Source of the DNA: a virus
Taxonomy: Duplodnaviria > Heunggongvirae > Uroviricota > Caudoviricetes
Direction: 5' to 3' (one strand)
Length of the DNA stretch: 39,037 nucleotides
IMG/VR virus record: IMGVR_UViG_2529293063_000017
Part shown: one piece after another, positions 10,766 through 39,037 of the stretch
Position numbering within the stretch: position 1 is the first letter of the stretch
How the letters are laid out: every line of letters begins with the position of its first letter
Notes under the pieces: model-generated
What the model was told of the DNA's origin: nothing
The model's input: the letters and a program-made list of their open reading frames with translations, nothing else
Databases searched by the model: none
Translations under genes and position numbers: made by a program

Positions 10766-10786
10766 CCTATTTCATCCATAAAAAAG

Positions 10787-15202: not shown

Positions 15203-15225
15203 TAAGACAAAGGAGCAAATTTTTT

Positions 15226-16278: not shown

Positions 16279-16323
16279 TCAACTCACGGCGGGCATCATG
16301 CCCGCCTGTAACGGAGAGAAAAA

Positions 16324-17124: not shown

Positions 17125-17225
17125 CGACTGACCCCGTCAGCGGGCGGCGTGCGCGGTGTTCCGGTTTGACTCCGTGACCGTTTACACCGCGCACCCACCG
17201 CCCGATTTTTTCAGGAGTGAACCCC

Positions 17226-22833: not shown

Positions 22834-24999
22834 ATGAGTACCACAACACGAAAATTTAAAACCATTATCACTGATACTGGTGCCAAAAAATTAGCTCAGG
22901 CAGCCGCGCCAGGTGGTAATCCTGTCCGCCTGACTCACATGGCCGTGGGCGACGGTGGCGGCACGTTGCCCACACCAGACAGTAAGCAGACCCGTCTGGT
23001 GCATGAGGTGTGGCGACATACTGTTAATCGCGTCATCCTGGACGCAACACATCAGAACCGCATTATTGCGGAGCTGGTTATTCCTCCTGAAACGGGCGGA
23101 TTCTGGATCCGGGAAATTGGTGTATTTGATGAGCACGGCGATTTAATCGCGGTGGGCAATACTGCCGAAAGTTACAAACCAACCGTTGCCGAAGGGTCCG
23201 GACGTGCACAAACATTTCGCACCATTCTGACCGTATCCAGCACTGCCACCGTGGCGCTTACCGTGGATAACACCATGGTGATGGCCACAGTGGATTACGT
23301 GGATGACAAACTGAAAGAGCATGAACAGTCACGACGTCACCCGGATGCCTCGCTGACCGCAAAAGGCTTTGTTCAACTCAGTAGCGCCACTAACAGCGAT
23401 TCTGAAACGCTGGCTGCAACGCCGAAAGCGGTTAAGGCCGCGTATGACCTGGCTAACGGAAAATATACCGCTCAGGACGCCACGACGGCACGAAAAGGGA
23501 TAGTCCAGCTCAGCAGTGCAACCAACAGCACGTCTGAAACGCTGGCAGCGACACCAAAAGCGGTTAAGGCGGTAATGGATGAAACGAACAAGAAAGCCCC
23601 ATTAAACAGCCCGGCACTGACCGGAACGCCAACAACACCAACTGCACAACAGGGAACGAATAATACCCAAATCGCAAGCACGGCTTTCGTTATGGCCGCG
23701 ATTGCCGCACTTGTAGACTCTTCACCTGACGCACTGAACACGCTGAACGAACTGGCGGCGGCGCTGGGCAACGACCCGAATTTTGCGACCACCATGACTA
23801 ACGCGCTTGCGGGTAAGCAACCGAAAGATGCCACCCTGACGGCGCTGGCCGGGCTTGCTACTGCGGCAGACAGGTTTCCGTATTTTACGGGGAATGATGT
23901 TGCCAGTCTGGCAACCCTGACAGAAGTCGGGCGGGATATTCTTGCGAAATCGACCGTTGCCGCTGTTATCGAATACCTCGGTTTACAGGAAACGGTAAAC
24001 AGGGCTGGTAACGCCGTGCAAAAAAATGGCGATACCTTGTCCGGTGGGCTTACTTTTGAAAATGACTCAATCCTTGCCTGGATTCGAAATACTGACTGGG
24101 CGAAGATTGGATTTAAAAATGATGCTGATGGTGACACTGATTCATACATGTGGTTTGAAACAGGCGACAACGGCAATGAATATTTCAAATGGAGAAGCAA
24201 AAAAAGCACCACAACAAAAGACCTGATGAATCTTAAATGGGATGCTTTGTTTGTCCTTGTTAAAGCCCTTTTCAGCAGTGAAGTAAAAATATCGACAGTC
24301 AATGCACTAAGGATATTTAATTCATCTTTTGGTGCCATTTTTCGCCGTTCTGAAGAATGCCTGCATATCATCCCGACACGAGAGAATGAGGGAGAAAATG
24401 GTGATATAGGGCCACTACGCCCCTTTACGCTTAATCTTAGAACTGGTCGGATAAGCATGGGGCATGGTCTTGATGTTACAGGGGATATATTTGCAAACCG
24501 TTTTGCAATTAACAGTAGTACCGGCATGTGGATTCATATGCGTGACCAGAATGTTATTTTGGGACGCAATGCGGTATCCACCGATGGTGCACAGGCATTA
24601 CTTCGTCAGGACCATGCTGATCGCAAATTTATGATTGGTGGGCTGGGAAATAAGCAATTTGGCATCTACATGATTAATAACTCAAGGACAGCTAATGGCA
24701 CCGATGGTCAGGCGTACATGGATAATAACGGGAACTGGCTTTGCGGCTCGCAAGTTATTCCCGGCAACTATGGCAATTTTGATTCCAGATATGTGAAAGA
24801 TGTTCGACTTGGTTCACAGCAATATTATGGAGTGAACAACTGGCAAACATGGAATTTCCAGTGCCCGTCAGGTCATGTATTGTCTGGTATTAATGTTCAG
24901 GATACAGGGTCCAACTCTGCCGATAATATAGCGGGCGTTTATTACAGACCCGTTCAAAAGTATATAAATGGCACCTGGTATAATATAGCGAGCGTTTAA
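22834..24999 (+). CDS. H: Tail fibre protein, gpH-like; C-terminal part lies inside the invertible segment (currently expressed variant)
   Basis: 721 aa; Ala/Thr-rich repeats; C-terminus ...[12 protein letters not shown]; a gix-like crossover site at 23966-23999 lies in-frame inside the gene. Confidence 0.9.
23966..23999. other. gix/hix-like inversion crossover site (left inverted repeat, about 34 bp)
   Basis: ttatcgaatacctcggtttacaggaaacggtaaa; reverse-complement match to 27030-27063; resembles the Mu gix site as I recall it (TTCCTGTAAACCGAGGTTTTGGATAA). Confidence 0.75.
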
Positions 25000-25000
25000 T

Positions 25001-25528
25001 ATGATGCACTTAAAGAACATAAAAGCGGGTAATGCTAAAACACTGGAACAGTATGAGTTAACAAAGAAGCACGGAGTCATCTGGCTTTACTCTGAGGACG
25101 AAAAAAACTGGTATGAGGAAGTGAAAAACTTTCAGCCAGACACCATAAAGATTGTTTACGATAAAAATCAGATTATAGTCGCTATCACCAGAGATGCTTC
25201 AACGCTTAATCCTGAAGGTTTTAGCGTTGTTGAGGTTCCTGATATTACCTCCAACCGACGTGCTGACGACTCAGGTAAATGGATGTTTAAGGATGGTGCT
25301 GTGGTTAAACGGATTTATACGACAGATGAGCAGCAACAACAGGCAGAATCACAAAAGGCCGCGTTACTTTCCGAAGCAGAAAGCGTTATTCAGCCACTGG
25401 AACGCGCCGTCAGGCTGAATATGGCGACGGATGAGGAACGCGCACGACTGGAGTCATGGGAACGCTACAGTGTTCTGGTCAGCCGTGTGGATACGGCAAA
25501 TCCTGAATGGCCACAAAAGCCTGAATAA
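25001..25528 (+). CDS. G: Tail fibre assembly protein (gpG / Mu U-like)
   Basis: 175 aa; immediately after H; paralogous to the minus-strand ORF 25557-26090. Confidence 0.85.
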
Positions 25529-25534
25529 AAATTA

Positions 25535-25554
25535 AGGCCCGCTATAGGGCCTTG
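25535..25554. terminator. Hairpin between convergent G and G' (bidirectional terminator candidate)
   Basis: aaggccc-gctata-gggcctt, 7-bp stem, at the centre of the invertible segment. Confidence 0.45.
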
Positions 25555-25556
25555 TC

Positions 25557-26090
25557 TCATTCAGGTTGTTCGGGAAACGTTACTGGCAGGCTGGAAGTGT
25601 CTGTAGATTCGACTTTCTGCGCAAAGAGCATCCACTCTGTTAATTTTTGTTTATTCTCGTCGGAAATGATGCCCAGCCGTAGCTGTGAGTCCCATAGCTG
25701 GGTTTTATCCCTGACGAGCTGTAGCAGGCTTTGCTTTTCATTTTCCGCCTGCTGCCTCTGCTCTTCCTCGGTATAAGTTCGCTTTACCACTACGCCATCT
25801 TTGAACATCCATTTACCCGAAATGTCAGCACGGCGATTTGCTGTAATATCAGGTAATTCAACGACGCTTGCGCCTTCCGGATTAATTGCTGAAACATCCT
25901 TTTCAATACAAATAATAACGCCGTTATGGCCATAGACCATTTTCAAAGTGTCTGGCTGGAAATTCTTTTGTTCCTCATACCAGTTTTTTCCATCATCTGA
26001 ATAAAGCCATTTGATGTTAAATTGCTTTGTTAGCTGGTATTGCTCTTTTGTTTTAGGGTTGCCAGCAGTAATGTTTTTTAAGTGCATCAT
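25557..26090 (-). CDS. Alternative tail fibre assembly protein (G'/U'-like)
   Basis: 177 aa; MMHLKNITAGNPKT... paralogous to G ([14 protein letters not shown]...). Confidence 0.85.
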   Translation of the reverse strand: MMHLKNITAGNPKTKEQYQLTKQFNIKWLYSDDGKNWYEEQKNFQPDTLKMVYGHNGVIICIEKDVSAINPEGASVVELPDITANRRADISGKWMFKDGVVVKRTYTEEEQRQQAENEKQSLLQLVRDKTQLWDSQLRLGIISDENKQKLTEWMLFAQKVESTDTSSLPVTFPEQPE

Positions 26091-26092
26091 CG

Positions 26093-27037
26093 TTAAATAC
26101 TCCCCGCGTTATACCACGTCCCATTAATGCAATACTGAATTGGCCTTGCCTGAGTTGTATCAATTAATGCATCACGGTTTCCGTTGACTGAACCCGTAAC
26201 GACATAACCTGACCTGTCAGACCAGCCGGGGCCATTCCATGTCTGAACAGATGACAGACCGCCAAGGCGAATACCTGTAATAAACCTTGAGTTACATTCT
26301 GCCTGCGTGTATGCACCAACATCTCCCGCAGAGGGTTTGCGGGTCGTGGTGTAAAACTCTGACCAGTCAACCTCAAATCCATAACCATCACGCGCTGAAC
26401 GATAAAAAATACCGCCGTTCCTGTAATTCACGCGGAACTGTACAGCAGGGCAGCTCCCCGTATTCATATTGAAGTGGAGGATTAATGTCGATGCGCCACC
26501 AATGTTTGCGTTATAGACCCCGCTATTCCAGTTCCAGCCAACAGCTTTATCATTTCCGACAGTGCTTCCTGTTTGCCCTAAAGCAAATGCAGGTTGTTGA
26601 TTTTTCGTGTTGTAGTCTCGTCGCCAGCCAGGAGCATAAGCATCACCATGATTAATATAAGTGAATTGAGCGTTAGTAATTCCGCCACCGCTGGACGTGC
26701 TCGGCGTGGTAACGCGTATGGTCATTGCGCCGCGAGTGCCAATAACTTCCACCACAGCACCTGCAAGACAAATATTTCCGCAACCTGTATCTGTAATGAC
26801 CTTATTATTTGCATAAGCCCATGAGCCTTTGCACATCCAGTAAGGATGGTTAAATGCTCCCTGACTCTCCAGCCACGAAATAAATTGCGCGGTTGTCCAG
26901 ACCTGACTATCGCCACCAATATCCAGCCATGCGCTATATGCGCGGCAGGCCCCAATATTTTTGGTGAAGGTATCTTTTCCCGGAATATCTGCGCCGTTCT
27001 GGTTTTTCTGTAATGCGCCAGAAGCCTGATTTACCGT
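26093..27037 (-). CDS. Alternative tail-fibre C-terminal variable segment (H'-variable), start-less; fuses to H constant part after inversion
   Basis: Reading frame is open on the minus strand from the gix-like site down to the stop at 26093 and in phase with H across the shared crossover sequence; ends ...INGTWYNAGSI, parallel to the H C-terminus. Confidence 0.75.
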   Translation of the reverse strand, partial: TVNQASGALQKNQNGADIPGKDTFTKNIGACRAYSAWLDIGGDSQVWTTAQFISWLESQGAFNHPYWMCKGSWAYANNKVITDTGCGNICLAGAVVEVIGTRGAMTIRVTTPSTSSGGGITNAQFTYINHGDAYAPGWRRDYNTKNQQPAFALGQTGSTVGNDKAVGWNWNSGVYNANIGGASTLILHFNMNTGSCPAVQFRVNYRNGGIFYRSARDGYGFEVDWSEFYTTTRKPSAGDVGAYTQAECNSRFITGIRLGGLSSVQTWNGPGWSDRSGYVVTGSVNGNRDALIDTTQARPIQYCINGTWYNAGSI

Positions 27038-27063
27038 TTCCTGTAAACCGAGGTTTTAGATAA
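27030..27063. other. gix/hix-like inversion crossover site (right inverted repeat)
   Basis: ttcctgtaaaccgaggttttagataa at 27038-27063, 25/26 to the Mu gix sequence as I recall it; inverted copy of 23966-23999. Confidence 0.8.
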
Positions 27064-27117
27064 TGGCCGTTTCCGGCCTGCATGGCATGATTTGCGCTTT
27101 TGGACGGGAGATTCAGC

Positions 27118-27705
27118 GTGCTGATTGGCTATGTAAGGGTATCAACAAATGACCAGAATACAGACCTGCAACGAAACGCTCTTGTTTGTGCAGGATGTGA
27201 ACAAATATTTGAAGATAAATTAAGCGGGACAAAGACAGACCGACCGGGATTAAAACGCGCTTTAAAGCGCCTTCAAAAAGGTGACACGCTGGTTGTCTGG
27301 AAACTGGATCGCCTCGGGCGAAGCATGAAACATCTGATTTCTCTCGTCGGGGAACTACGGGAGCGAGGAATTAATTTTCGCAGTCTGACCGACAGCATAG
27401 ATACATCTTCTCCAATGGGGCGTTTTTTCTTCCACGTGATGGGTGCCCTGGCTGAAATGGAACGTGAATTAATTGTTGAACGTACACTGGCCGGACTGGC
27501 GGCAGCACGCGCACGGGGGCGCACAGGCGGACGTCGACCGAAGCTGACAAAAGAACAGCATGAGCAAATAGCAAGGCTGATCAAAAACGGGCACGACAGA
27601 AAACAACTGGCAATAATTTACGGCATTGGTATATCGACGATTTATCGTTACCACCCCGCAGGAGAATCAATCGGAACAATAGAGAAGAGTCAGGAAACAA
27701 AATAA
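27118..27705 (+). CDS. Serine DNA invertase, Gin/Pin/Cin/Hin family
   Basis: MLIGYVRVSTNDQNTDLQRNALVCAGCEQIFEDKLSG...LVVWKLDRLGRSMKHLISLVGELRERGINFRSLTDSIDTSSPMGRFFFHVMGALAEMERELI... is close to Gin-family invertases; GTG start at 27118 (the ORF track extends to a TTG at 27100). Confidence 0.9.
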   Translation: MLIGYVRVSTNDQNTDLQRNALVCAGCEQIFEDKLSGTKTDRPGLKRALKRLQKGDTLVVWKLDRLGRSMKHLISLVGELRERGINFRSLTDSIDTSSPMGRFFFHVMGALAEMERELIVERTLAGLAAARARGRTGGRRPKLTKEQHEQIARLIKNGHDRKQLAIIYGIGISTIYRYHPAGESIGTIEKSQETK

Positions 27706-27737
27706 CCGCTAATCTGACCATTAGCGGTTTTTGTGTT
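27706..27737 (+). terminator. Rho-independent terminator after the invertase gene
   Basis: ccgctaat-ctgacc-attagcgg hairpin followed by tttttgtg. Confidence 0.5.
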
Positions 27738-27740
27738 AAA

Positions 27741-28235
27741 TCAGAACAGCCCTTTAACTGAACTGGCCGCGCTGTTAAGAGATGATGTCACCTTATCTTT
27801 GAAGCCGGACAGCATATCGCTGAATGATGAGGATTGCAGGCGCTCCCGCAAATCCTCATCACAGCGTTCAAGGGTCAGTGAAAATTCTATCTTTTTCGCC
27901 TTACCGTAGCGATCAAACTCGGAACGGGTCGTATTAGTTTCAGTCAACACATACATGCCGTAAATCTGCCCGACACCATCAATCAGAGGCCAGGGGCGTC
28001 CTGTATATGCCTGCGTGGTCAGCAACGAAAGCGACACTTCGCCACCTGTAATTTCAGGATAAAGCACGCCAGAAAGCACAATGCGATCATCACCTGCACC
28101 GATATACTGCCAGCTTGCTGAGCGGTTAACGCGTTCATTTTTCACATGCCGCCAGCTTTTGTTTTGCTGTAACTGCTGATGCGGCAATGTGCGCAGCTCA
28201 AAAACAAACATGCCGTAGATCATCATCATGACCAT
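27741..28235 (-). CDS. U: Tail protein, gpU-like
   Basis: ...FVFELRTLPHQQLQQNKSWRH...WPLIDGVGQIYGMYVLTE... resembles P2 gpU. Confidence 0.85.
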   Translation of the reverse strand: MVMMMIYGMFVFELRTLPHQQLQQNKSWRHVKNERVNRSASWQYIGAGDDRIVLSGVLYPEITGGEVSLSLLTTQAYTGRPWPLIDGVGQIYGMYVLTETNTTRSEFDRYGKAKKIEFSLTLERCDEDLRERLQSSSFSDMLSGFKDKVTSSLNSAASSVKGLF

Positions 28236-28241
28236 GACTCC

Positions 28242-31085
28242 TCAATCTTTATCGTAAAAACTGCCACGTCCGGCACGGGCGCGCCGTTCCATCTCTGCCC
28301 TGACCATTTCACCGACCAGTTTCGCCAGTTCGCGGGGATTCTGCGTAACAACGTTATGCAGATGAACATGAATTTCACCACCAAATCCGGAGGCAACAGG
28401 CTCCCGGTTACGGGAAGTTACAGGAACTGATGCCACTGGAGATCGTATGGCCTCCGCCACCGGGCGGGAGCTGGCCGCAACAACAGGGACCAGCGCCGGA
28501 GGCAGCGGAGCCGGAACCACGGGTGTGATATTAATTGCGGGGGCAGGCTTACTGACCTGCGCAATCTTCCGCTCCTGCCACTCCCCACGAACAGCAAGTG
28601 CTCGGGGCAGGTTTTTAAAGACAATATCGCCGGGGCCAATACGTTTTTTCGTCTCCTCAACCAGCTTACCTGTGTTATCAGCAATTTTGCTGAGTCTGCG
28701 CAGCGTACCGGTATTGCTGTCTGTGAGCGGTTTATTGTCTTTGGGGTTATCACCTCCGGTGCCATTGCCATTTTCCACAGGCTTCGGCGGATTGATTTTC
28801 GCCAGGTCCCCCTGAAGCAAGGCAACCTTGTCCTGAAGAATGGCCGCACGCTGTGCGTCTTCGATTTTCTTTCTCGCCCTTTCCGCTTCATCCGGAAGAA
28901 CACCGAGTTTTTCAAGTATCCACGCCAGCGTATCCAGCAACATTTTTGCAGGCGTCAGAACAAGCTGTAACGCGCCACCAAGAACGTTACCGAATATCTC
29001 GCCAGCACTGGTACATTTATCCAGCGTTTCCTTGCTGGACTCCATCGGTGACAGCAGCGATTTAAACCAGTTAAACACCTGGCTGATCCCGCTTCCGATT
29101 GCGTCAAAAACAGGGCCAAACCGTTCAAAGGTTTCACGCAACGGGTTCAGCCTTTCCATAATCCCGCTGAACACCCCGGCAAAAAATGCCCTGATGGGAT
29201 CCCAGTATTTCCAGATAAGAACGGCAGCTCCGGCAAGCGCAGCCACGATAAGACCAACCGGACTGAACAGCGCCCCGATAGCTCCTCCCAGCAAAGAAAC
29301 GGAACCCGTCACCATTCCCCACAGCGCAGGCAACACCCTGACGACATTCATTGACCGGGTAAGAATGTCAAAACCAAGACGCAGGGTGGCCAGCTTCCCG
29401 TAAAGCACCCCAATAACCAGCGACAACGAGCCAATCGTTGCAGTCATTGCCAGCAACGCACCGCCTGCTATCAGTAGCTGGCGCGTCAGTACCGGATGGG
29501 CCTGCGCCAGCGAGGTGATTGTTTCAAGCACCCGCGTGAGCCACTGCGTGACAGAACGCAGCGGACCGTCAACCAGATCACTGATGCGAATACGAAGACC
29601 TTCCCATGCGCTGTCGAGATTTTTCAGGTCCCCATCAAGATTATCGGCCATTACTTTTGCAACGCGATCGGCCTCTCCCCTTGCCCCCTGCAATTCTCTG
29701 GTCAGTTTTTGCAGCTCTCCTGAACCAGCCGCCGCAACAAGCGTCTGCAAACCAACGAACGCCTCTTCTCCGGCGATGTCCTTGAAGAAGGAGACCTGGT
29801 CCACCTGTCCGTATTTTTGTGTCGCCTTATAGAGATCAAGCAGCACATCCTCCATCGGGCGCATTTTGCCTCTGGCGTCAGCAACTGACACCCCCAGCTC
29901 TTTCAGTGCATCAGCCGCAGCTTTTGGCGGTGATGCAAGGCGGGACAGACTTGCGCGCATGGCCGTGCCAGCATCGCTTCCGCGAAGACCATTATTGGCA
30001 AGCATCCCGGCCATGGCCGCCGCTTCTTCAAGACTGATACCAAGTTTTGCGGCAACCGGACCGGTATACTTCATGGTTTCGCCCAGCGCGCGTAAATCAG
30101 TATTGGTCCGGGTAAATGCTGCTGTCAGCGTATCGCCCCCCCGGTCCATTTGATCGGCTGTCAGGTTGAACTGTGTGAGGATATTGGAGCCTATATCAGC
30201 CGTCTCGCCGAGTTCGACGCCCCCTGCCAGCGCCATATTAAGAACACCGGGCAATGCGGCCTGAATGGCCTGCGGAGTAAAACCAGCCATTGCCAGAAAG
30301 CTCTGCCCACTGGCGGCATCACTCGCAGTAAACTGTGTTTCAGAGCCAAGTTTTAACGCCTGCTCACGCAGCGCCTTAAACTGCGGGCTGTTTTTGTCGA
30401 TTCGCGTCAGTGCCTGAACGCGGGACATCTCTTTGCCGAACCCGATCGCAGGCTGCAAAAAACGCCCGGCAGCATAGCCGCCCGCTGCTGCCGCACCAAT
30501 TGCCAGCGCACCACCTGTTTTCAGTTTTCCCGCGGTTTCCTGCGCGCGCGAATACCGCTCACGCGCCTGCGTTACACGCGCAAGCGCCTGCCGTTCGCGT
30601 TCAAGCTGGTTGTTGTATTGTTCGGTGCGTCTGATGGCCTGCTGAATGGTGTTATCGCTGCCTGTCAGGGAAATGCCGTGGCGTTTCAGTTCTCCGCCAA
30701 GCTCCCGCATTTTCTGAATTTCCCGTGTGCGCGATTCATTCAGGCGTTCAAGCCGGGTGCTTAACTGCTGCATTAGCTTTTGTTGTTTTTCGCTGAGCAC
30801 TGTACCCGTGCGTTGTAACTGATTAAGGGCGTTAAGCTGGCGTCGTGCTTTCACGATACCCGCATCCGCTTTACTGACAGCGTCGCGGGCGCGCTCAAAT
30901 GATCGCGCCTGACGCTCGAGATTTTTGATCGCCCCCTGCGTTCGCTGGATGGAGTCACCAAACTGCCCCATCAGGCGGCGGGCGTTTTCGGCAGGCCGGG
31001 TCAGCCTGTCAACGGCGCTGAAAGCGACCCGGATATCAAGAGTCTTCATTGTCTGCATTCCCGCTGCGAAGTGCCGCCCGCTCAC
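28242..31085 (-). CDS. T: Tail tape measure protein, gpT-like
   Basis: 947 aa; coiled-coil-rich N-terminal part, hydrophobic central segments, Ala/Gly-rich; position after E/E'. Confidence 0.9.
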   Translation of the reverse strand: MSGRHFAAGMQTMKTLDIRVAFSAVDRLTRPAENARRLMGQFGDSIQRTQGAIKNLERQARSFERARDAVSKADAGIVKARRQLNALNQLQRTGTVLSEKQQKLMQQLSTRLERLNESRTREIQKMRELGGELKRHGISLTGSDNTIQQAIRRTEQYNNQLERERQALARVTQARERYSRAQETAGKLKTGGALAIGAAAAGGYAAGRFLQPAIGFGKEMSRVQALTRIDKNSPQFKALREQALKLGSETQFTASDAASGQSFLAMAGFTPQAIQAALPGVLNMALAGGVELGETADIGSNILTQFNLTADQMDRGGDTLTAAFTRTNTDLRALGETMKYTGPVAAKLGISLEEAAAMAGMLANNGLRGSDAGTAMRASLSRLASPPKAAADALKELGVSVADARGKMRPMEDVLLDLYKATQKYGQVDQVSFFKDIAGEEAFVGLQTLVAAAGSGELQKLTRELQGARGEADRVAKVMADNLDGDLKNLDSAWEGLRIRISDLVDGPLRSVTQWLTRVLETITSLAQAHPVLTRQLLIAGGALLAMTATIGSLSLVIGVLYGKLATLRLGFDILTRSMNVVRVLPALWGMVTGSVSLLGGAIGALFSPVGLIVAALAGAAVLIWKYWDPIRAFFAGVFSGIMERLNPLRETFERFGPVFDAIGSGISQVFNWFKSLLSPMESSKETLDKCTSAGEIFGNVLGGALQLVLTPAKMLLDTLAWILEKLGVLPDEAERARKKIEDAQRAAILQDKVALLQGDLAKINPPKPVENGNGTGGDNPKDNKPLTDSNTGTLRRLSKIADNTGKLVEETKKRIGPGDIVFKNLPRALAVRGEWQERKIAQVSKPAPAINITPVVPAPLPPALVPVVAASSRPVAEAIRSPVASVPVTSRNREPVASGFGGEIHVHLHNVVTQNPRELAKLVGEMVRAEMERRARAGRGSFYDKD

Positions 31086-31565
31086 GCCAGCTAACCACTT
31101 CGCCGGGCGTCATCATGAAGATTTCGGCGGGCGACCAGTTAAAAATGGCGGCAATATCCGCCACAAAGTCTTCTATATGCTCAAAGCACACAACCGTGAT
31201 CAGGCTTCCGTCGCCTGTTCGTTCTTCCCGCCAGAGTCCGCACCGCTCAAAAAATTTACGGCAACCACACATAACTGAATAAAGTCACGGGATGCCATTT
31301 TTTTGATCGTCACTTCATCCAGTCGCGGTGATGTCACGCGTGACAGCAGCGTAAACATGGATTCCGCTTTCAGATTCAGCACATCAGACAGCGACAAATC
31401 TCGCAGAGATCCAGCCTGCTCAATAGCCCCGGTGATCTCCACATACGTGATTTTTTCGCCGCCTCGCTCAATTGGTTGGGTAAGTTTTCCCCCACGCTCA
31501 CTGGTTTCTTTCACAGTGTCAGTAACTACCGTGTTTTCGGTATCGATGTTTTTCGTCTCTTTCAT
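31036..31565 (-). CDS. Tail assembly chaperone frameshift product, gpE+E'-like (-1 programmed frameshift)
   Basis: The -1 frame opened at ttttttg (minus strand, 31256..31250) continues as FFERCGLWREERTGDGSLITVV... to the stop at 31036, overlapping the T start, as in P2 E/E'. Confidence 0.75.
31200..31565 (-). CDS. E: Tail assembly chaperone, gpE-like
   Basis: 121 aa; ends just downstream of a T6G slippery heptamer; position between FII and T. Confidence 0.85.
   Translation of the reverse strand: MKETKNIDTENTVVTDTVKETSERGGKLTQPIERGGEKITYVEITGAIEQAGSLRDLSLSDVLNLKAESMFTLLSRVTSPRLDEVTIKKMASRDFIQLCVVAVNFLSGADSGGKNEQATEA
31250..31256 (-). other. Slippery heptamer TTTTTTG for the E/E' -1 frameshift
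   Basis: Plus-strand caaaaaa at 31250-31256 is ttttttg on the coding (minus) strand; located 16 codons before the E stop. Confidence 0.7.
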
Positions 31566-31619
31566 CAGGAAACTCCTTTCAGTCAGAGGCGACGCACTGC
31601 GCCGCCTGCATATTACTTA

Positions 31620-32132
31620 TCAGCCAAGCCCGAGCGCGGAACGGATGCGATCGGGCACAATGTCCTTGCCGTCCTTCCGGTAAATGAAGTTCAGCAGGTC
31701 AATCTCCCACAACGGGCGATCGTTAACACTCAGCTTGTAGTAGGTGTTTTTAATGGCGTAAGTGTGTGATGTGGCTTCGCCCTGTTTGGCTTCCCCCATA
31801 TCAATTTCCGTCACACGTCCGCGCATTTCGACTTCATACAGGTCGCTTTCTGCATCGGTGTAGTATTCACCCGCAAAACGCAGCAGCGTGCCGTCAATCG
31901 TGCCGCCATACTTAAGGAACAGCTCACGAACTGCGCCCCCCATGACAAAGCTCGCATCAAGCGCGGAGTCGTCCAGACCGAGATCAATACTTACCGCACC
32001 CATCATGCCGCCCCCCCGGTAGCTGTCGGTTTTGCGCGTCAGTTTGGGCAGAGTGACGGACGTCACCTTACCCACTTCGTTTTCACCATCCACAAACAGC
32101 GTAAAAAAGCGAAGATGTTTTGGCACAGCCAT
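31620..32132 (-). CDS. FII: Tail tube protein, gpFII-like
   Basis: ...VTLPKLTRKTDSYRGGGMMGAVSIDLGLDD... matches P2 FII (...VTLPKLTRKLENYRGAGMNGAAPIDLGLDD...). Confidence 0.9.
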   Translation of the reverse strand: MAVPKHLRFFTLFVDGENEVGKVTSVTLPKLTRKTDSYRGGGMMGAVSIDLGLDDSALDASFVMGGAVRELFLKYGGTIDGTLLRFAGEYYTDAESDLYEVEMRGRVTEIDMGEAKQGEATSHTYAIKNTYYKLSVNDRPLWEIDLLNFIYRKDGKDIVPDRIRSALGLG

Positions 32133-33316
32133 CAGGCACCTCCCAGCACCGCAAATGCGGGTTCAAAGTATTCATCAGTAAACGTCTGGTAAAGCTCCAT
32201 GTCTTCCAGTGGCGGAACGGGCGTATATTTGTAGCGAATACGCACACGCCCCTGACGTAAATCCGTGGTGCTGTTATCCACCACGTCATACCAGCACTCC
32301 GCGCCAATCAGTTTCCCGGCAGTAACCAGTGAATCCAGTTTTGCCCTGATGGCACTGATAACATCCTTCACGTTCGCAGGCGTCAGTGGACTGTCGATGG
32401 TTTCAAACTGCGCTTCCGCAATTGAATCAGCCAGCACCTGTGCGGTTCGGGTATACACCTCAAAGATGTAGGCGTTCGTTTCCGGTGTGCGGTTGCCCCA
32501 GAAGCGGAACCCGTTGCGACGAATAATGGTCGTGATTTCTTTGTTGTTGAGGCTGTTGGCATCGCTGTCTTCGGCCTGCAACGACCAGAACACATGCCTC
32601 GACATCCCCAGCACATTTTTAACCGGAACGTTGGACAGTGATTTGTGCCACCCCTGCTCATGGTCAATGTACGCACGAAGGCCGCACGCATAGGCAGGCG
32701 CGGGGAACGTTTCGTTTTTGCCACTTTTCGGGTTGTAGGCGATGAAGTCCGGCCATAAGAGCATCATCTCACGTTCGTTGAATTTCTGGCGGTAGGTAAT
32801 CGCCTCAGCCATCGTGTTACAGCCGTGACATGAGGCATACACAAACGCGCGCAGTTTACCTGCAATCACGCACAGGGATTTTGTTACCGCCTCCGTGTCC
32901 AGCTCCGGCGCGGCCAGAATACGCGGACGGTATCCGATGCTTTCATCCTGCTCTGCAACAAGCAGCGCATACATCCCCGTATAGCTGCCGTCAGATTCAG
33001 AACCACCGATAACCAGTTGATCCTGCGTTTTTCCGTCTTCTTCTTTGTGTTCAGCCACGCGAACGACGATCACCTTTGTGCTCACCTGGTCTGCGATGGC
33101 CTTAAGCGCACGATAAAGCGTCCCCGTTGTTCCGCATTTTCCCAGCACGTCATTGACGCGGGTCAGCAGTGTGGGCTTGTTCAGCGGGAACAGCTCCGCG
33201 TCCGCATCATCCGCCGTTGCCACGATACCGATAACACTGGAATCAACATCATTAATCGCTGTTACCAGGTCGGTACTTTCCGTAACACGGGCACCATGAA
33301 AACGAGTTTCACTCAT
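32132..33316 (-). CDS. FI: Contractile tail sheath protein, gpFI-like
   Basis: 394 aa; size and position upstream of FII. Confidence 0.9.
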   Translation of the reverse strand: MSETRFHGARVTESTDLVTAINDVDSSVIGIVATADDADAELFPLNKPTLLTRVNDVLGKCGTTGTLYRALKAIADQVSTKVIVVRVAEHKEEDGKTQDQLVIGGSESDGSYTGMYALLVAEQDESIGYRPRILAAPELDTEAVTKSLCVIAGKLRAFVYASCHGCNTMAEAITYRQKFNEREMMLLWPDFIAYNPKSGKNETFPAPAYACGLRAYIDHEQGWHKSLSNVPVKNVLGMSRHVFWSLQAEDSDANSLNNKEITTIIRRNGFRFWGNRTPETNAYIFEVYTRTAQVLADSIAEAQFETIDSPLTPANVKDVISAIRAKLDSLVTAGKLIGAECWYDVVDNSTTDLRQGRVRIRYKYTPVPPLEDMELYQTFTDEYFEPAFAVLGGA

Positions 33317-33482
33317 AGCTTCAGCCCCTTGTATCCGTTAAATGATTCGGCAACAATCATCACCCACCACGCGCGTAATCTCACCCCTGCGACGTTCTCC
33401 CGCCACGGCGACAACAAAAAGCAGTAACCCCCTCCGCACGCACATGCGACCATGCCGCACAGGGAGGGAACAGATGACCGAC

Positions 33483-34583
33483 ACCACCATGCAATTGATC
33501 AGTCAGGGCACAGACCCCGTGAAAATGCCGGATTTTGATATTCTCGCGGAGGGTAAAACGCTGTCAGGCGTGGCAGAGCGCCTGATGAGCCTGTCACTGA
33601 CCGACAACCGGGGATTTGAAGCAGACCAGCTCACCATCACGCTGGATGATGCAGATGGTCAGTTGCATCTACCGCCACGGGGCGCGCGCCTGACGGTTCT
33701 CATTGGCTGGAAAGGGGAACCGCTGACAGAAAAAGGCACTTACATTGTTGATGAAATCGCTCACGAAGGACCGCCGGACAGGCTGACTGTTTCAGCCAGA
33801 AGCGCAGATTTTCGGGATGAATTTAACGTTAAACGAGAGGTGTCCTGGCATGATGTGACCGTTGAGCGTGTGGTATCCGCCATCGCTCATCGGTATGGTC
33901 TGAAACCGCAAATCAGCGAAATGCTGATGGATATCGAAATCGACCACGCCGACCAGACCGAAGAAAGCGACATGTCCTTCCTTACGCGCATGGCGGAAAT
34001 GCTGGGCGCAATCACCACGGTAAAAAGCGGCAATCTGTTATTCATCATGCCAGGTGGTGGCGTGAACGCACAGGGCCAGCCGTTGCCCTCGTTCGCCATT
34101 ACACGCAGCAGCGGCGATCGCCATCAGTTCCGTATTGCTGATCGCGAGGCGTATACGGGGGTACGCGCCTACTGGCTTGATCTTAATTACGGGAAAAAGA
34201 AAAAAGTCAGCGTGAAACGCCGTAAACCGCCAAAACCCAAAAAGGAGAAAAGCAGCAGCCGTGAAGGTGATTATATGGAAGGCGCGGAAGGCAATGTGTT
34301 TGTGTTACGCAAGACTTATCAGAACGAGCAGGCAGCAAGACGCGCAGCGGCGGCAAAGTGGCAGCAGCTACAACGCGGAGCCGCATCATTTTCCATCACG
34401 CTGGCACGTGGACGCGCAGAACTCTACCCCGAAATGCATGGCACGGTAACAGGATTTAAAAGCGAGATTGATAATCAGGACTGGATTATTGCAAAAGTCG
34501 AGCACACCGTTGATAACAGCGGCTTTACCACGCAGCTTGAGCTTGAAGCAAAAATCCCGGAATGGATAGCGGAAACAGAATGA
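33483..34583 (+). CDS. D: Tail protein gpD-like (late gene D)
   Basis: ...SWHDVTVERVVSAIAHRYGLKP...HADQTEESDMSFLTRMAEMLGAITTVKSGNLLF...GGVNAQGQPLP...FVLRKTY...RGAASFSITLARGR... matches P2 gpD; ATG at 33483 after RBS gggaggg. Confidence 0.85.
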   Translation, partial: TTMQLISQGTDPVKMPDFDILAEGKTLSGVAERLMSLSLTDNRGFEADQLTITLDDADGQLHLPPRGARLTVLIGWKGEPLTEKGTYIVDEIAHEGPPDRLTVSARSADFRDEFNVKREVSWHDVTVERVVSAIAHRYGLKPQISEMLMDIEIDHADQTEESDMSFLTRMAEMLGAITTVKSGNLLFIMPGGGVNAQGQPLPSFAITRSSGDRHQFRIADREAYTGVRAYWLDLNYGKKKKVSVKRRKPPKPKKEKSSSREGDYMEGAEGNVFVLRKTYQNEQAARRAAAAKWQQLQRGAASFSITLARGRAELYPEMHGTVTGFKSEIDNQDWIIAKVEHTVDNSGFTTQLELEAKIPEWIAETE

Positions 34584-34694
34584 GCGATTTGGAGATATTA
34601 AATCAAACATGAGTAAATATTACCAATAACAGAGTGTACTTATTGGATGTATAGTTCTTTCATTTTTTAGGAGAAATTAAGAAAATTAACTCAA

Positions 34695-34727
34695 TGTGCA
34701 CCTTATAAAGGCGCACACTTTGTTTTG
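34695..34727 (+). terminator. Rho-independent terminator candidate after D
   Basis: Imperfect hairpin tgtgcacc-ttataaa-ggcgcaca followed by tttgttttg. Confidence 0.45.
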
Positions 34728-34731
34728 CATG

Positions 34732-35790
34732 TTAAAAATTATTTATTATGTGTTCAGCTAAATGATCATACTCACCAGCCATCTCATTCATTAGTTCTAC
34801 CTGATTAACTGCCCATTGCCCCCGCCCACGAAGAGCATTCGTTGGCCTAACTCGAGACAAATAGCGAATAGGTATATTTTGAATAATACTATCAGGAGCC
34901 ATAACGTTGAGGTCCTCAATCTTTCCAACTGGTTCATAATCAGTAAAATCAGGAACCGCGTTGTAAGATGAAATCTGTGAAAGCTGAGGAAGCATTTTTT
35001 CCTCTATCGCTTTTCTTATTGAACGGTGATGAACTGCATCTGCACCAACCTCTTGTTTAACATCATTTTGCTTTCTCGTATCAAAACCATTGAATATCCA
35101 ACCGCCAAATTTAGGCATCCCTTTCTGAGATATAATATTATCTCGTGGGTTACCTGATAGATATCTTTCCTTGCCCTGCTCCCAATCACGTATAAATGAT
35201 GGCAACATCTCACCAATCAGCCCTACACAATATGAAGAGAATAAATCAGGTGTGCATGGAACTAAAAAATAGTCCGAGCAGTACAATGACGATCTAACAA
35301 GCGTATTGAATGAGGGAGGTAAATCTATTAGGACATAATCATAAATAACATCATTTTTCTCTGATGCTTTTTTTGTTATCAAATCTGGCAAAATAAAACG
35401 ATATAACCCTGCGCCACTTATAACATCAGTGCCGACATTTAAAATATCTGAAAATGTATTAAGCCAAAAGTCTCCAGGAACAATATGCAAAACGCCTGCA
35501 TCTGTCTTAGTCTTAGGTTCTGTTGTATAAACTTCACCTATAGTATTTTGTTGTATGTAAGGCAATGCAAATGCTTTAACCGTTTTTCCAAAAGGGAAAT
35601 CATCTGAAGGTTCCAATAACTCTGAAAATTCCTCATCACCAATACATGCAATTGAGAGATTACACTGGGGATCAAAGTCTATTAATAAAACACTTTTTCC
35701 TTTATCTGCTAGCGATACTGCAAGATTCCAAATTATAGTTGTTTTACCAACACCACCTTTGTTATTAAAAATCGATATAGTTTTTGTCAT
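34732..35790 (-). CDS. ParA/MinD-family Walker-type ATPase with about 100-aa C-terminal extension; solo accessory gene
   Basis: 352 aa; N-terminal deviant Walker A (MTKTISIFNNKGGVGKTT); AT-rich; no ParB-like partner gene nearby. Confidence 0.8.
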   Translation of the reverse strand: MTKTISIFNNKGGVGKTTIIWNLAVSLADKGKSVLLIDFDPQCNLSIACIGDEEFSELLEPSDDFPFGKTVKAFALPYIQQNTIGEVYTTEPKTKTDAGVLHIVPGDFWLNTFSDILNVGTDVISGAGLYRFILPDLITKKASEKNDVIYDYVLIDLPPSFNTLVRSSLYCSDYFLVPCTPDLFSSYCVGLIGEMLPSFIRDWEQGKERYLSGNPRDNIISQKGMPKFGGWIFNGFDTRKQNDVKQEVGADAVHHRSIRKAIEEKMLPQLSQISSYNAVPDFTDYEPVGKIEDLNVMAPDSIIQNIPIRYLSRVRPTNALRGRGQWAVNQVELMNEMAGEYDHLAEHIINNF

Positions 35791-36050
35791 TTACAACCCT
35801 TATTTCAGTGAAATTTTCGTTGAGAATCAGCATTTGTTTTTTTTGCATAAACCACAATTCAACTTTGAGATTAACACAAGCCTTATTGTTATACATTAAA
35901 ATCCTACTCAAATGACATCATTGAGATACTCATGTAATTTATTCGCCACGACAAAGCCTTCTTCAGTGACTTGCTCAAAGCGGAGTTGCTGTTGGAATCT
36001 GAGTTGGGGCAACTTAGAATGGTGGCAGCACCACGTTAAGGGAGGTCGCT

Positions 36051-36311
36051 ATGTTTCGTTGTCCGCTTTGTGGCGCATCTGCCCGTATCCGCACCAGTCG
36101 TCCTGAAAATGATTCAAACACCGTGCGGCAAAAGTATTACCAGTGTAACAATCTGGAATGCGGCGTATGCTTCTCAACACTGGAAGCTTTCCATAAATTC
36201 ACATCAAAACACGCCTCCGGCGCTCTCTCTTCAGAAGGTATCCCGTGGCATAAGCTGCCAGCTTCACACAGGGGAAACAATCAGATGAGTTTGCCTTTAC
36301 CTCAGAATTAA
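36051..36311 (+). CDS. ogr: Ogr/Delta-family zinc-finger late-gene transcription activator
   Basis: MFRCPLCGASARIRTSR...YYQCNNLECGVCFSTLEAF... resembles P2 Ogr (MFHCPLCQHAAHARTSR...YHQCQNVNCSATF...). Confidence 0.85.
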   Translation: MFRCPLCGASARIRTSRPENDSNTVRQKYYQCNNLECGVCFSTLEAFHKFTSKHASGALSSEGIPWHKLPASHRGNNQMSLPLPQN

Positions 36312-36878: not shown

Positions 36879-37076
36879 ATGACGCAAAATGTACGATGCA
36901 AAAATTGCAACAAACTACTTGCCCGCGCCTCATTTCACTACATTGAAATAAAATGTCCGCGCTGCAAAACACTTAACCAGATAACGAGAGCCATTGAGCA
37001 CCCCACACACATGAGGAGTTATGACCGTGGGGATCGCAATCCAGCACCAACCAGCACATACACCGGAACACACTAA
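36879..37076 (+). CDS. com: Com-like zinc-finger protein (Mu Com family translational activator)
   Basis: MTQNVRCKNCNKLLARASFHYIEIKCPRCKTLNQITRAIEHPT... resembles Mu Com (MKSIRCKNCNKLLFKADSFDHIEIRCPRCKRHIIMLNACEHPT...); its 3' end overlaps the start of the methyltransferase gene. Confidence 0.8.
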   Translation: MTQNVRCKNCNKLLARASFHYIEIKCPRCKTLNQITRAIEHPTHMRSYDRGDRNPAPTSTYTGTH

Positions 37077-37812
37077 GGTTTATCAGACTGACAATGCCAC
37101 GCTCTGTCGTGGGAATGCGCTGGAAATATTGCCGCTGATTGAGCCAGAAAGTATTGATGCCTTAATCACTGACCCGCCTTACAGTTCGGGCGCGACACAC
37201 AAGGCCGGACGCACCAACCAGGGCAGCCACGCAAAATATCTGAACGGCGAGAACCTTCATCGCTTTGATGGGTTTGCGGGTGAAAACATGGATGCCCGTT
37301 CGTGGGCTTACTGGACACAATTATGGATGGCACAGGCACACCGCGCAGTCAGGCCGGGCGGTTATGCCCTGGTATTTACTGACTGGCGACAACTGCCAGC
37401 TTTAACCGATGCGTTTCAGGCCAGCGGTTTTACATGGCGTGGAATCATTGCGTGGAACAAAGGAAGGGGGTCACGAACACCCCATACGGGGTATTTCCGG
37501 CATCAGTGCGAATACATCGTCTGGGGCAGTAAAGGCCATTTAGGTAAATCGCCTTCGGGACCGTTCGACGGCTGCATGACGTTCCCGGTTATCCCATCAA
37601 AGAAAATGCACCCGACCGGAAAACCAGAAGAACTTATGGCAGAACTGGTCAGGACTGCGAATAGTGGTGGAACAGTCCTTGATCCTTTTATGGGATCGGG
37701 AACAACGGGTGTTGCAGCACTGAAAGCAGGACGCAAATTTATTGGTATAGAAACCAGTGATCATTATTTTGATGTAGCAACACAACGGCTCAAAACGGCG
37801 ATCGAACCATAA
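37021..37812 (+). CDS. DNA methyltransferase (N6-adenine or N4-cytosine class, DPPY motif), orphan
   Basis: 263 aa; motif IV ...LITDPPYSSG... precedes motif I ...LDPFMGSGTTGVAA... (beta-class order); RBS gaggag before the ATG; no adjacent restriction endonuclease gene. Confidence 0.85.
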   Translation: MTVGIAIQHQPAHTPEHTKVYQTDNATLCRGNALEILPLIEPESIDALITDPPYSSGATHKAGRTNQGSHAKYLNGENLHRFDGFAGENMDARSWAYWTQLWMAQAHRAVRPGGYALVFTDWRQLPALTDAFQASGFTWRGIIAWNKGRGSRTPHTGYFRHQCEYIVWGSKGHLGKSPSGPFDGCMTFPVIPSKKMHPTGKPEELMAELVRTANSGGTVLDPFMGSGTTGVAALKAGRKFIGIETSDHYFDVATQRLKTAIEP

Positions 37813-37856
37813 GACAAAGCCCGCAATGTTGCGGGCTTACTCTACCTCTCGAAAAT

Positions 37857-37880
37857 GTGGTCACTGCGTGGACATACGCT
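37857..37880. repeat. Candidate attR core (direct repeat of 11-35)
   Basis: gtggtcactgcgtggacatacgct; shares cactgcgtggaca with the left end; lies about 45 bp after the last phage gene. Confidence 0.4.
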
Positions 37881-38041
37881 GATACAAATCCTTTTATATC
37901 AAGAAATTAAATCTTTGTTTTTTTCATCAACAAGGATTTTCACGTTTGTGTTACCTGTATGAGACGAGAGTTAACCGGACAAGTGTGCCATAATCTCGCG
38001 GCCAGGCATACTTGCGAAGATTTCAGGTATAAGGATACGTA

Positions 38042-39037
38042 ATGATACAACCTATTTCCGGCCCTCCTCCTGGGCAACCACCAGGTCAGGGAGATAACCT
38101 GCCGTCTGGCGCGGGCAATCAGCCTTTATCCAGTCAGCAACGTACTTCGCTGGAAAGCTTAATGACGAAAGTGACCTCACTGACGCAACAGCAAAGAGCA
38201 GAACTGTGGGCGGGTATCAGGCACGATATTGGTCTGTCGGGAGATTCCCCGCTGCTTTCGCGTCACTTCCCTGCCGCTGAGCATAATCTGGCGCAACGTC
38301 TGCTGGCCGCGCAAAAAAGCCATTCTGCCCGCCAGCTTTTAGCGCAATTAGGGGAGTATTTACGTCTGGGGAATAATCGTCAGGCGGTCACGGATTATAT
38401 CCGTCATAACTTTGGTCAGACGCCGCTGAATCAGCTCTCACCGGAGCAATTAAAAACCATTCTCACCCTGTTGCAGGAAGGGAAGATGGTTATTCCGCAA
38501 CCACAGCAGCGCGAGGCGACCGACCGTCCTTTATTACCGGCGGAGCACAATGCGCTAAAACAGCTGGTGACCAAACTTGCGGCGGCAACGGGGGAACCCA
38601 GCAAACAGATCTGGCAATCGATGCTGGAACTTTCCGGGGTGAAAGATGGCGAGTTAATTCCAGCGAAACTGTTTAACCATCTGGTGACCTGGTTGCAGGC
38701 GCGCCAGACGTTAAGCCAGCAAAATACGCCGACGCTGGAATCACTACAGATGGCGCTAAAACAACCTTTAGATGCCAGTGAACTGGCGGCGTTATCGGCA
38801 TATATCCAGCAAAAATATGGCCTTTCTGCGCAATCATCGCTTTCTTCTGCCCAGGCCGAGGATATTCTTAATCAGCTTTATCAACGGCGGGTTAAAGGGA
38901 TTGATCCGCGTGATATGCAACCGCTGCTTAATCCTTTTCCACCGATGATGGACACGTTGCAAAATATGGCAACGCGTCCCGCGCTGTGGATACTGTTAGT
39001 CGCGATTATCCTGATGCTGGTCTGGCTGGTTCGTTAG
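38042..39037 (+). CDS. Probable host-side gene: Pro/Gln-rich protein with internal repeats and a C-terminal TM anchor; function unknown
   Basis: 331-aa ORF beyond the candidate attR; N-terminal PPGQPPGQ segment; C-terminal ...ALWILLVAIILMLVWLVR hydrophobic tail. Confidence 0.5.
   Translation: MIQPISGPPPGQPPGQGDNLPSGAGNQPLSSQQRTSLESLMTKVTSLTQQQRAELWAGIRHDIGLSGDSPLLSRHFPAAEHNLAQRLLAAQKSHSARQLLAQLGEYLRLGNNRQAVTDYIRHNFGQTPLNQLSPEQLKTILTLLQEGKMVIPQPQQREATDRPLLPAEHNALKQLVTKLAAATGEPSKQIWQSMLELSGVKDGELIPAKLFNHLVTWLQARQTLSQQNTPTLESLQMALKQPLDASELAALSAYIQQKYGLSAQSSLSSAQAEDILNQLYQRRVKGIDPRDMQPLLNPFPPMMDTLQNMATRPALWILLVAIILMLVWLVR

Follow-up and report, generated by a model that had tools for sequence, protein, structure and literature searches.

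In P88-like phages and three sister genera of the P2 family, an inverted FI–U tail block is the normal gene order

The tail genes FI to U lie inverted, relative to P2, in P88-like phages and in three sister genera, where this is the normal gene order. We met it in the window, the 39,037-nucleotide stretch of virus record IMGVR_UViG_2529293063_000017 that was analysed, which by its sequence is a P88-like (Xuanwuvirus) prophage of the P2 family. Very probably the FI–U orientation was fixed once, anciently, in the ancestor of a large branch of enterobacterial Peduoviridae, with one Ogr-type site shared at the FI–D junction. This judgement covers the explanation as a whole, including the parts that we infer: promoter positions, Ogr dependence, bidirectionality from one site and evolutionary polarity. 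Gene identities and orientations, their distribution, the absence of the flipped state and of gix sites at the block boundaries, and the conservation of the dyad were read directly from the genomes.

Results

The FI–U block is inverted in place relative to P2

ORF layout and Pfam matches put FI, FII, E/E', T and U on the minus strand (27741-33316), and H, G, an invertase gene, D and ogr on the plus strand (Table 1). In the annotated P2 record, H, G, FI, FII, E, T, U, D and ogr share one strand, hence the FI–U block is inverted in place compared to P2. The first-pass annotation had described the same strands and the co-orientation of the P2 genes, and this description is correct. Homologues of FI, FII, E/E', T, U and D were all found, at 33-49% identity to P2, i.e. 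the contractile-tail module of the P2 family (Peduoviridae). The P2 synteny, in which FI to U, D and ogr are co-oriented with V to G, is absent from the window. This difference is no ground for exclusion from the Peduoviridae, because four ICTV genera of that family share the inverted FI–U block.

Gene limits were refined as follows. The start of T is likely the ATG at 31049, which matches the P88 annotation. A programmed −1 frameshift between E and E', upstream of T, is predicted from the slippery heptamer in their overlap, and the same frameshift is annotated in P2. D starts at the ATG at 33474, which is preceded by a GGAGGG Shine-Dalgarno sequence and agrees with the P88 annotation, so the FI–D spacer is 157 bp long and not 166 bp (33317-33482) as first described; position 33483 reads ACC, which is no start codon. 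Nor is ogr next to D: a low-GC stretch of about 1.5 kb (34584-36050) separates them and carries a ParA-like gene, of which a PADLOC scan matched the P-loop only.

Table 1. Features of the tail region and of the divergent late spacers (positions in the window).
Feature	Position	Strand	Remarks
Dyad identical to that of the FI–D spacer	14274-14295		in the divergent P–O spacer; P starts at 14211, O at 14366
H	22834-24999	+	
Left gix crossover site	23966-23991	-	inside H; 24/26 match to right site
G	25001-25528	+	
Right gix crossover site	27038-27063	+	55 nt upstream of the invertase gene
Gin-like serine DNA invertase	27118-27705	+	Resolvase E=1.5e-50, HTH_7; GTG start 27118 as in P88 annotation
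Hairpin	27704-27729	both	10-bp stem and U-runs on both strands
Tail protein U	27741-28235	-	PF06995 E=5.5e-39; 46% identity to P2 U
Tape-measure protein T	28242-31085	-	PF10145; ORF from GTG 31085
E+E' −1 frameshift product (predicted)	31036-31565	-	slippery heptamer TTTTTTG 31248-31254, in E/E' overlap
E	31200-31565	-	E' frame to 31036; PF06528 on E' frame
Tail tube protein FII	31620-32132	-	PF04985 E=7.5e-47
Tail sheath protein FI	32132-33316	-	sheath domains (Pfam); 46% identity to P2 FI
Divergent FI–D control region	33317-33473		157 bp
Putative −10 of the leftward FI promoter	33356-33361	-	GATGAT; 46 nt from dyad centre
Ogr-type dyad	33394-33415		GTTCT-N12-ACAAC; core TCT-N12-ACA 33396-33413; centre 33404.5
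Putative extended −10 of the rightward D promoter	33445-33453	+	TGcGACCAT; ~45 nt from dyad centre
Tail/baseplate hub protein D	33474-34583	+	PF05954; 49% identity to P2 D
ParA-like gene	34732-35790	-	in low-GC DNA between D and ogr
Ogr/Delta-family zinc-finger late activator ogr	36051-36311	+	PF04606 E=5e-14; CX2CX24CX4C

The layout can be described as the P2 'F operon' turned round in place without its last gene, D, a simple event that would have produced two junctions: a divergent one between FI and D, and a convergent one between the cargo (here the invertase gene) and U. The hairpin found at the latter (−15.7 and −16.1 kcal/mol on the two strands, z = −3.8 and −4.0) looks like a putative bidirectional intrinsic terminator, which would close the convergent junction.

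The inverted order is shared by a whole branch

P88 is 95.3% identical in nucleotides over 96% of window positions 25000-35000, and its annotated gene order is the same. Among 5426 complete E. coli genomes, the divergent FI–D junction was found contiguous in 1109, and the invertase–U junction in 621. About one fifth of these genomes have the arrangement, so it ought not to be marked as anomalous or misassembled. An assembly artefact of this sequence, one of two explanations put forward in the first-pass annotation, has only its a priori possibility in its favour and virtually no chance of being right: both junctions occur in independent complete phage genomes (P88, P884B11, Shae_phiSM, 500465-2 and others) as well as in the E. 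coli genomes just counted, and both recur in diverged relatives of many genera. We consider it already refuted by this concordance across genomes.

Beyond P88, the inverted block was found in four ICTV genera, Xuanwuvirus, Novemvirus, Reginaelenavirus and Senquatrovirus, the latter three without invertase, as well as in Serratia phage KSP20 and in prophages from some 13 genera of enterobacteria. It is also present in E. coli relatives where a glycosyltransferase or an acetyltransferase replaces the invertase. For GTDB species representatives, tblastn confirmed 165 candidates, all retrieved via two peptide patterns only, and the best 80 of them formed the sample. In this sample, the 23 loci with an FI at least 58% identical to that of the window were all inverted, and the 52 loci with an FI at most 51% identical and a locatable D were all canonical. 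Inverted loci were monophyletic in an FI tree and in a D tree, both built by neighbour-joining and midpoint-rooted. Related P2-like genomes thus commonly share the orientation, the very observation for which the first-pass annotation was ready to give up its view of the order as anomalous, and we therefore regard it as a clade trait. An ancestral inversion of the block relative to P2, which it had also envisaged, is supported.

The neighbouring invertase is part of a tail-fibre cassette

The ends of the invertase gene and of U lie 35 bp apart, Gin-family enzymes flip DNA that lies between inverted gix sites, and natural genomes with the adjacent 3.1-kb segment flipped do exist. It could thus be proposed, as the first-pass annotation did, that the invertase acted on the block, either flipping it as a second invertible segment or having flipped it once at pseudo-gix sites. 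We hold this to be very improbable. Only two gix sites were found in the window (23966 and 27038, with 0 expected by chance), and both bound the Mu-like tail-fibre segment (23966-27063), not the FI–U block. That segment, used as a positive control, was present in both orientations, in 164 versus 125 genomes, whereas the flipped state of the block, a canonical U-to-D junction, was found in 0 of the 1421 matching complete E. coli genomes.

Degenerate hix/gix-like half-sites, suggested earlier as a possible trace at both boundaries, were scanned for, and scores were at chance level: the best full sites reached 14 and 15 of 24 positions, equalled or exceeded at ~0.2-0.5% of window positions, and the best half-site 9 of 12, with ~0.5 expected by chance. 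Flanking inverted repeats searched across 27600-33600 did not go beyond chance-like pairs. One pair, with arms at 27818 and 33237, was considered and rejected (22 nt, 77% complementary, within coding sequence, 1 of 275 pairs). Finally, Novemvirus, Reginaelenavirus, Senquatrovirus and the E. coli relatives devoid of invertase have their block in the same orientation. Judged as a segment of the Gin/Hin/Cin type, the 5.6-kb block therefore lacks crossover sites, a second orientation and a dependence on the invertase.

Between 25000 and 27497, the window is 92-95% identical to the G segment and gin of Mu and D108. Such closeness implies that this mosaic cassette was acquired after the clade had diverged. 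The Gin-like invertase would be part of a horizontally acquired Mu-type tail-fibre cassette, sitting in a variable cargo slot between G and U. We conclude that the invertase is a component of the tail-fibre cassette, with no bearing on how the block is oriented. A frozen 5.6-kb block lies here beside a freely flipping segment, so that an adjacent invertase gene is by itself no evidence of invertase action.

A probable single inversion in place rather than a module swap

P2-like phages are mosaic, and H, G and the invertase cassette have clearly been exchanged, being 64-90% identical to P2 for the former and 92-95% identical to Mu for the cassette. A foreign sheath-tube-tape-measure module might likewise have been inserted in the opposite orientation. 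Divergence from P2 makes this horizontal swap improbable: block proteins (FI, FII, E, T and U) are 33-46% identical to those of P2, compared to 49% for D and 42-47% for Q, P, N, V and W. Block and flanking proteins have diverged similarly, which argues for an inversion in place rather than a swap. Moreover, the FI tree, from within the block, and the D tree, from outside it, give the same split between inverted and canonical loci, and the block keeps its internal gene order and the predicted E/E' frameshift. The inverted branch that would descend from such an in-place inversion comprises the four genera named above and many unnamed prophages. As to polarity, the midpoint-rooted neighbour-joining trees and the broader range of hosts with the canonical order suggest that this order is ancestral and the inverted one derived.

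One Ogr-type dyad lies between FI and D

As FI and D are divergent across the spacer, D needs a promoter apart from that of FI–U; the first-pass annotation was right on this point, and the promoters proposed below are putative. A scan for sigma-70 consensus promoters gave no match inside 33317-33473. The P2 late-promoter consensus is TGT-N12-ACA (PMC3931495); in this exact form it had 8 matches in the window, for 9.6 expected, and 0 in the late spacers. Promoters of the P2 Ogr-dependent type have their dyad centred near −55 and lack a −35 element. The TCT-N12-ACA form, specific to the clade, came to light only when the P–O spacer was set against the FI–D spacer. Exact GTTCT-N12-ACAAC occurs in the window in these two spacers only. 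In the FI–D spacer, the dyad centre is 88.5 nt away from the start of FI and 69.5 nt from that of D. Its core has one mismatch to the P2 consensus (TCT for TGT), and the homologous spacers of 3LV2017 and SEN4 carry a perfect TGT-N12-ACA. Of 21 clade members, 20 keep the dyad, at 78.5-88.5 nt from the start of FI, and in all four genera each P–O and each FI–D spacer has exactly one T[GC]T-N12-ACA dyad, at similar distances to the flanking genes. The window also encodes a cognate Ogr homologue, with the zinc-finger spacing given in Table 1.

In the P2 record, pP and pO have one annotated activator site in common, flanked by transcription starts at a distance of 55-56 nt, and in Smp131 one dyad was assigned to both the P and O promoters (PMC3931495). 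Since the identical motif stands in the P–O spacer, for which P2 has one shared site annotated, D most likely has its own late promoter and shares the activator site with the FI promoter. Ogr bound at this dyad would activate FI–U leftward and D rightward through weak −10 elements about 45 nt on each side; in P88, where ogr directly follows D, the rightward transcript would also include ogr. Putative −10 elements are consistent with this: in relatives, a conserved GATAATC/GATTATC block aligns with that of FI, and a conserved TGn-(G/A)AnCnT block with that of D.

The −10 proposed for D (GACCAT) is weak and implies a short 5' UTR of about 14 nt, and a conserved GC-rich CGCGCGCG-type block lies between the dyad and D. 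Both points would suit a D promoter that is Ogr-independent, or served by a second, unrecognised activator site, with the central dyad serving the FI operon only. We see some chance of this, but think it unlikely, for the spacer holds a single dyad in nearly all relatives and has no sigma-70 consensus match, the distance from dyad to −10 is symmetric (~45 nt on both sides), the D-side TGn/−10-like block is conserved across genera, and pP/pO of P2 offers a precedent for one site with two divergent promoters. The shared-site reading can be carried one step further: the inversion may have placed the symmetric pF activator site beside D, so that one Ogr dyad drives FI–U and D (with ogr, where it follows) divergently, a proposal to which we give even chances. 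In the papers searched, no description of such a second bidirectional late promoter was found.

A 12-mer common to the P–O and FI–D spacers, GCCCYTTGTATC, was considered as a trace of recombination and discarded: the match is 11/12, with ~0.1 expected by our own estimate, its positions do not correspond in the two spacers, and it is not conserved in relatives.

Discussion

No explicit description of the inversion was found in the papers checked on P88, Citrobacter prophages, P2 hotspots and Peduoviridae comparison. The inverted order itself matters little beyond annotation, where it means that the synteny of P2 cannot serve as a template for all Peduoviridae. The FI–D spacer, for its part, may be a second bidirectional promoter that depends on Ogr, and as a candidate it is compact and readily testable. 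If it is one, D and ogr would be under direct Ogr-dependent control, apart from sheath and tube, and the branch would offer a natural case of an inversion that splits an operon and yet stays viable thanks to the dyad symmetry of an activator site.

Comparison with known systems

The closest relatives are P88 and the other Xuanwuvirus phages (P884B11, Citrobacter phage Shae_phiSM, Escherichia phages 500465-2, 520873, PhiR44_2 and Chuche), which are 92-97% identical to the window in nucleotides over the region and have an identical order and orientation: J, I, H and G, the invertible tail-fibre segment, the invertase, then U, T, E', E, FII and FI on the opposite strand, followed by D. Differences are local. 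In P88, ogr comes directly after D, whereas the window has the ParA-like gene in between, and some Xuanwuvirus members contain IS elements or miss the invertase cassette.

With the F operon of P2 (FI, FII, E, E', T, U, D), the window shares the gene set, the internal order, the E/E' heptamer and an activator of the Ogr family, at 33-49% protein identity. The P2 operon, however, is co-oriented with H and G, includes D, has U and D abutting, and is read from the single unidirectional promoter pF, whereas in the window FI–U is inverted and D is split off. At pP/pO of P2, one dyad-symmetric site lies midway between divergent late genes, and the P–O and FI–D spacers of the window likewise have one dyad each. 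P2 has no second bidirectional late region, and FI–D of the window is a candidate for one. Lastly, positions 23966-27063 form a cassette of the kind known from the Mu G segment and Gin (and from the C segment and Cin of P1 and P7), with inverted 26-bp gix sites and both orientations in nature; from the Mu G segment the 5.6-kb tail block differs in all three respects, gix sites, second orientation and invertase dependence.

Orientation of the FI-U block

ORFs and Pfam matches show a late region of the standard P2-family type. P2 itself, according to its annotated record, has H, G, FI, FII, E, T, U, D and ogr on a single strand, with U directly adjoining D; here the genes from FI to U are inverted in place, as the first-pass annotation had read them. 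The 166-bp gap that it placed between FI and D has to be corrected: D starts at ATG 33474, with a GGAGGG Shine-Dalgarno sequence and in agreement with the P88 annotation, so the FI|D spacer is 157 bp long (33317-33473). The longest D ORF (from ATG 33342) crosses this control region (33342-33473), as does a small P88 CDS, SF19_gp50 (12297-12428 of the P88 locus); in both cases promoter DNA has probably been miscalled as coding sequence.

Features of the late region and of the FI|D spacer (window coordinates)
Feature	Coordinates	Strand	Basis or remark
J, I, H	H: 22834-24999	+	ORF listing, Pfam
G	25001-25528	+	ORF listing, Pfam
Tail-fibre segment	23966-27063		3.1 kb
gix sites	23966-23991; 27038-27063		inverted relative to each other
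Cargo slot	25529-27740		between G and U end
Serine invertase	27118-27705	+	ORF listing, Pfam
U	27741-28235	-	ORF listing, Pfam
T	28242-31085 (likely start 31049)	-	ORF listing, Pfam
E/E'	31036-31565	-	P2-type TTTTTTG slippery heptamer at 31248-31254
FII	31620-32132	-	ORF listing, Pfam
FI	32132-33316	-	ORF listing, Pfam
-10-like block, FI side			GATGAT in window, GATTAT-type in relatives; conserved
GTTCT-N12-ACAAC	33394-33415; 14274-14295		FI|D spacer; P|O spacer
Alternating GC block	33436-33447; 14244-14251		FI|D, D side; P|O, P side
-10-like block, D side			TGn-(G/A)AnCnT; conserved
D	33474-34583	+	ORF listing, Pfam
D-ogr interval	34584-36050		about 1.5 kb, 35-42% GC
ParA-like gene	34732-35790	-	352 aa
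ogr	36051-36311	+	ORF listing, Pfam; zinc finger CX2CX24CX4C

Occurrence and age of the inverted order

Identity to Escherichia phage P88 is 95% across 96% of a 10-kb query from this region, and the layout is common to P88, P884B11, Shae_phiSM, 500465-2, 520873, PhiR44_2 and Chuche. Of 5426 complete E. coli genomes, 1109 matched a 1.2-kb probe across the FI|D junction as one contiguous stretch. A probe spanning the invertase|U junction was contiguous in 621; in many other genomes homology to it sets in just beyond the U stop codon (5-7 nt beyond it in relatives), next to a different cargo gene. Two relatives lacking the invertase cassette have in this slot, which is equivalent to the P2 Z/fun slot, either a family-9 glycosyltransferase (E. 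coli 779, 7733-8911 of the locus) or a serine O-acetyltransferase (O157:H7 prophage, 8278-8850), and U-T-E-FII-FI are still inverted and divergent from D. The same order, again with no invertase, is present in three further ICTV genera (Novemvirus phiT5282H, Reginaelenavirus 3LV2017 and Senquatrovirus SEN4). Recurrence in seven named phages and in so many complete genomes disposes of an assembly artefact. Nor is the orientation an anomaly: it is the normal gene order of P88-like phages and sister genera, already deposited in public annotations.

One genome per GTDB species was scanned with an FI profile, the best 80 of 165 candidate loci were kept, and FI, FII, E, T, U, D, ogr, H, I and J were located on them by tblastn. 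These 80 loci divided cleanly by FI identity to the window. With FI at least 58% identical, the order was inverted in all 23 loci (from Salmonella, Citrobacter, Edwardsiella, Enterobacter, Kosakonia, Symbiopectobacterium, Mixta, Pantoea, Erwinia, Trabulsiella, Izhakiella, Klebsiella and Pectobacterium), whereas with FI at most 51% identical and D locatable it was the canonical P2 order in 52 of 52, Burkholderia P2-like elements included. Whether the tree is built from FI, a gene of the block, or from D, a gene beyond it, the inverted loci form one clade (neighbour joining, midpoint-rooted). Identity to P2 is 33-46% for the block proteins and 42-49% for the flanking D, V, W, Q, P and N. The block being as diverged as its flanks, these comparisons argue for an ancestral inversion in place in an old lineage, as first suggested, and against a recent module swap.

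In the Trabulsiella odontotermitis member of the clade (8733-17529 of its locus), I and H are opposite to those of all other members, beside an invertase gene; with a truncated D gene, this locus is probably a rearranged remnant. Contigs L007 and L051, labelled Vagococcus sp. WN89Y (Gram-positive), carry P88-like and P2-like prophage DNA, and FI in L007 matches its counterpart in the window's enterobacterial element at 97% identity; this assembly is probably contaminated.

The invertase and its segment

The first-pass annotation had offered the adjacent invertase as a possible cause of the inversion. Exactly two gix sites are present in the window, bounding a Mu-like tail-fibre segment (92-95% identical to Mu and D108) with alternative H C-termini and G/G' chaperones. 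Full gix sites or half-sites scored at chance level in 27650-27800 and 33280-33520, and a search for an inverted repeat flanking the block found none. A flipped block would join the U end to the D start; this constructed junction was absent from all 1421 E. coli genomes that gave a match. Tested in this way, the tail-fibre segment was in the window state in 164 complete E. coli genomes and flipped in 125, so the method detects real invertase switching. As relatives devoid of invertase have the same order too, inversion of the block by its neighbour was rejected. The invertase inverts its own cassette, and its position beside U is a chance occupancy of the variable cargo slot.

Other features of the window

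D and ogr are both on the plus strand, as previously described, but are not contiguous. The low-GC interval between them holds a ParA/AAA_31-like ATPase gene, whose PADLOC match covers the P-loop only. Since ogr is within about 45 bp of D in P88 and Shae_phiSM, this DNA is a cargo insertion. A ParM/StbA actin-like segregation protein and a StbB-like plasmid-stability protein are encoded at 8023-9301, just after replication gene A; this pair is also annotated in the O157:H7 relative. The segment 9386-10765, of very low GC (33-39%), has two minus-strand genes, for a 280-aa protein with no Pfam match and a DUF4760 protein; this A-to-Q (cos-proximal) position has been described as a P2 anti-phage hotspot (Rousset et al. 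2022, PMC9122126). The DNA downstream of ogr, at 37021-39037, codes for an N6/N4 DNA methyltransferase (PADLOC type II MTase, E=2.5e-63) and has a 331-aa ORF, weakly similar to GemA, that stops precisely at the window's end; at its other end, the window opens precisely at the integrase stop codon.

The S and V genes share 4 nt (19839-21061), hence the P2-style intergenic pV region is absent, whereas P2 has orf30 and an activator site at this position. A copy of the GTTCT-N12-ACAAC dyad with one mismatch lies inside the lysis genes (18914-18935). Given these two observations, the late-operon structure upstream of V may differ from that of P2.

A candidate bidirectional late promoter between FI and D

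D is essential in P2. The convergent invertase/U junction is made up almost wholly of a hairpin with a 10-bp stem and a U-run on each strand (folding energies of -15.7 and -16.1 kcal/mol, z about -4), and resembles a bidirectional intrinsic terminator. Such a hairpin would preclude plus-strand read-through into D, whose transcription would then have to start within the 157-bp spacer. Together with the divergent layout, it bears out the prediction of separate promoters for FI-U and D, as far as sequence can tell.

No sigma-70 consensus match was found inside the spacer. It contains GTTCT-N12-ACAAC, of which just one other exact copy exists in the 39-kb window, in the divergent P|O spacer. The core, TCT-N12-ACA, is one base off TGT-N12-ACA, the published P2 late-promoter consensus (PMC3931495). 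Exactly one dyad per P|O and per FI|D spacer, at similar distances to the flanking genes, was found in the window, phiT5282H, 3LV2017 and SEN4, those of the last two being perfect TGT-N12-ACA. The FI|D dyad is kept in 20 of 21 diverged clade members, 78.5-88.5 nt from the FI start, and conserved -10-like blocks lie ~45 nt from it on each side. The longest O ORF begins at 14333 (14333-14368); that O really starts at ATG 14366 is supported by an AGGGG Shine-Dalgarno sequence and by alignment with P2 gpO. With this start, the distances of the P|O dyad are 73.5 nt to P and 81.5 nt to O, like those in P2. Located 32-37 nt from the dyad centre is an alternating GC block (CGCGCGCG type), conserved on the same sides in four of four genera examined (homologous spacers of relatives L088, L089 and L090); it could serve as promoter spacer, as discriminator or as an additional binding site.

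On the most economical reading, the FI|D spacer is a second pP/pO-type bidirectional late promoter, where Ogr bound at the single dyad would turn on both FI-U, to the left, and D, to the right. If the inversion had its breakpoints at the U/D boundary and immediately upstream of the pF activator site, this symmetric site would have come to lie beside D, and the rearrangement may have been tolerated for that reason. A literature search found no paper commenting on the block inversion, nor does the accessible text of the P88 and phiSM papers remark on it; novelty is slight and confined to the inferred sharing of the activator site. The P2 record likewise assigns one activator-binding site to pP and pO together, their transcription starts being 55-56 nt to either side of it, and rearranged late operons are reported in other P2-like phages too, such as Smp131 (PMC3931495).
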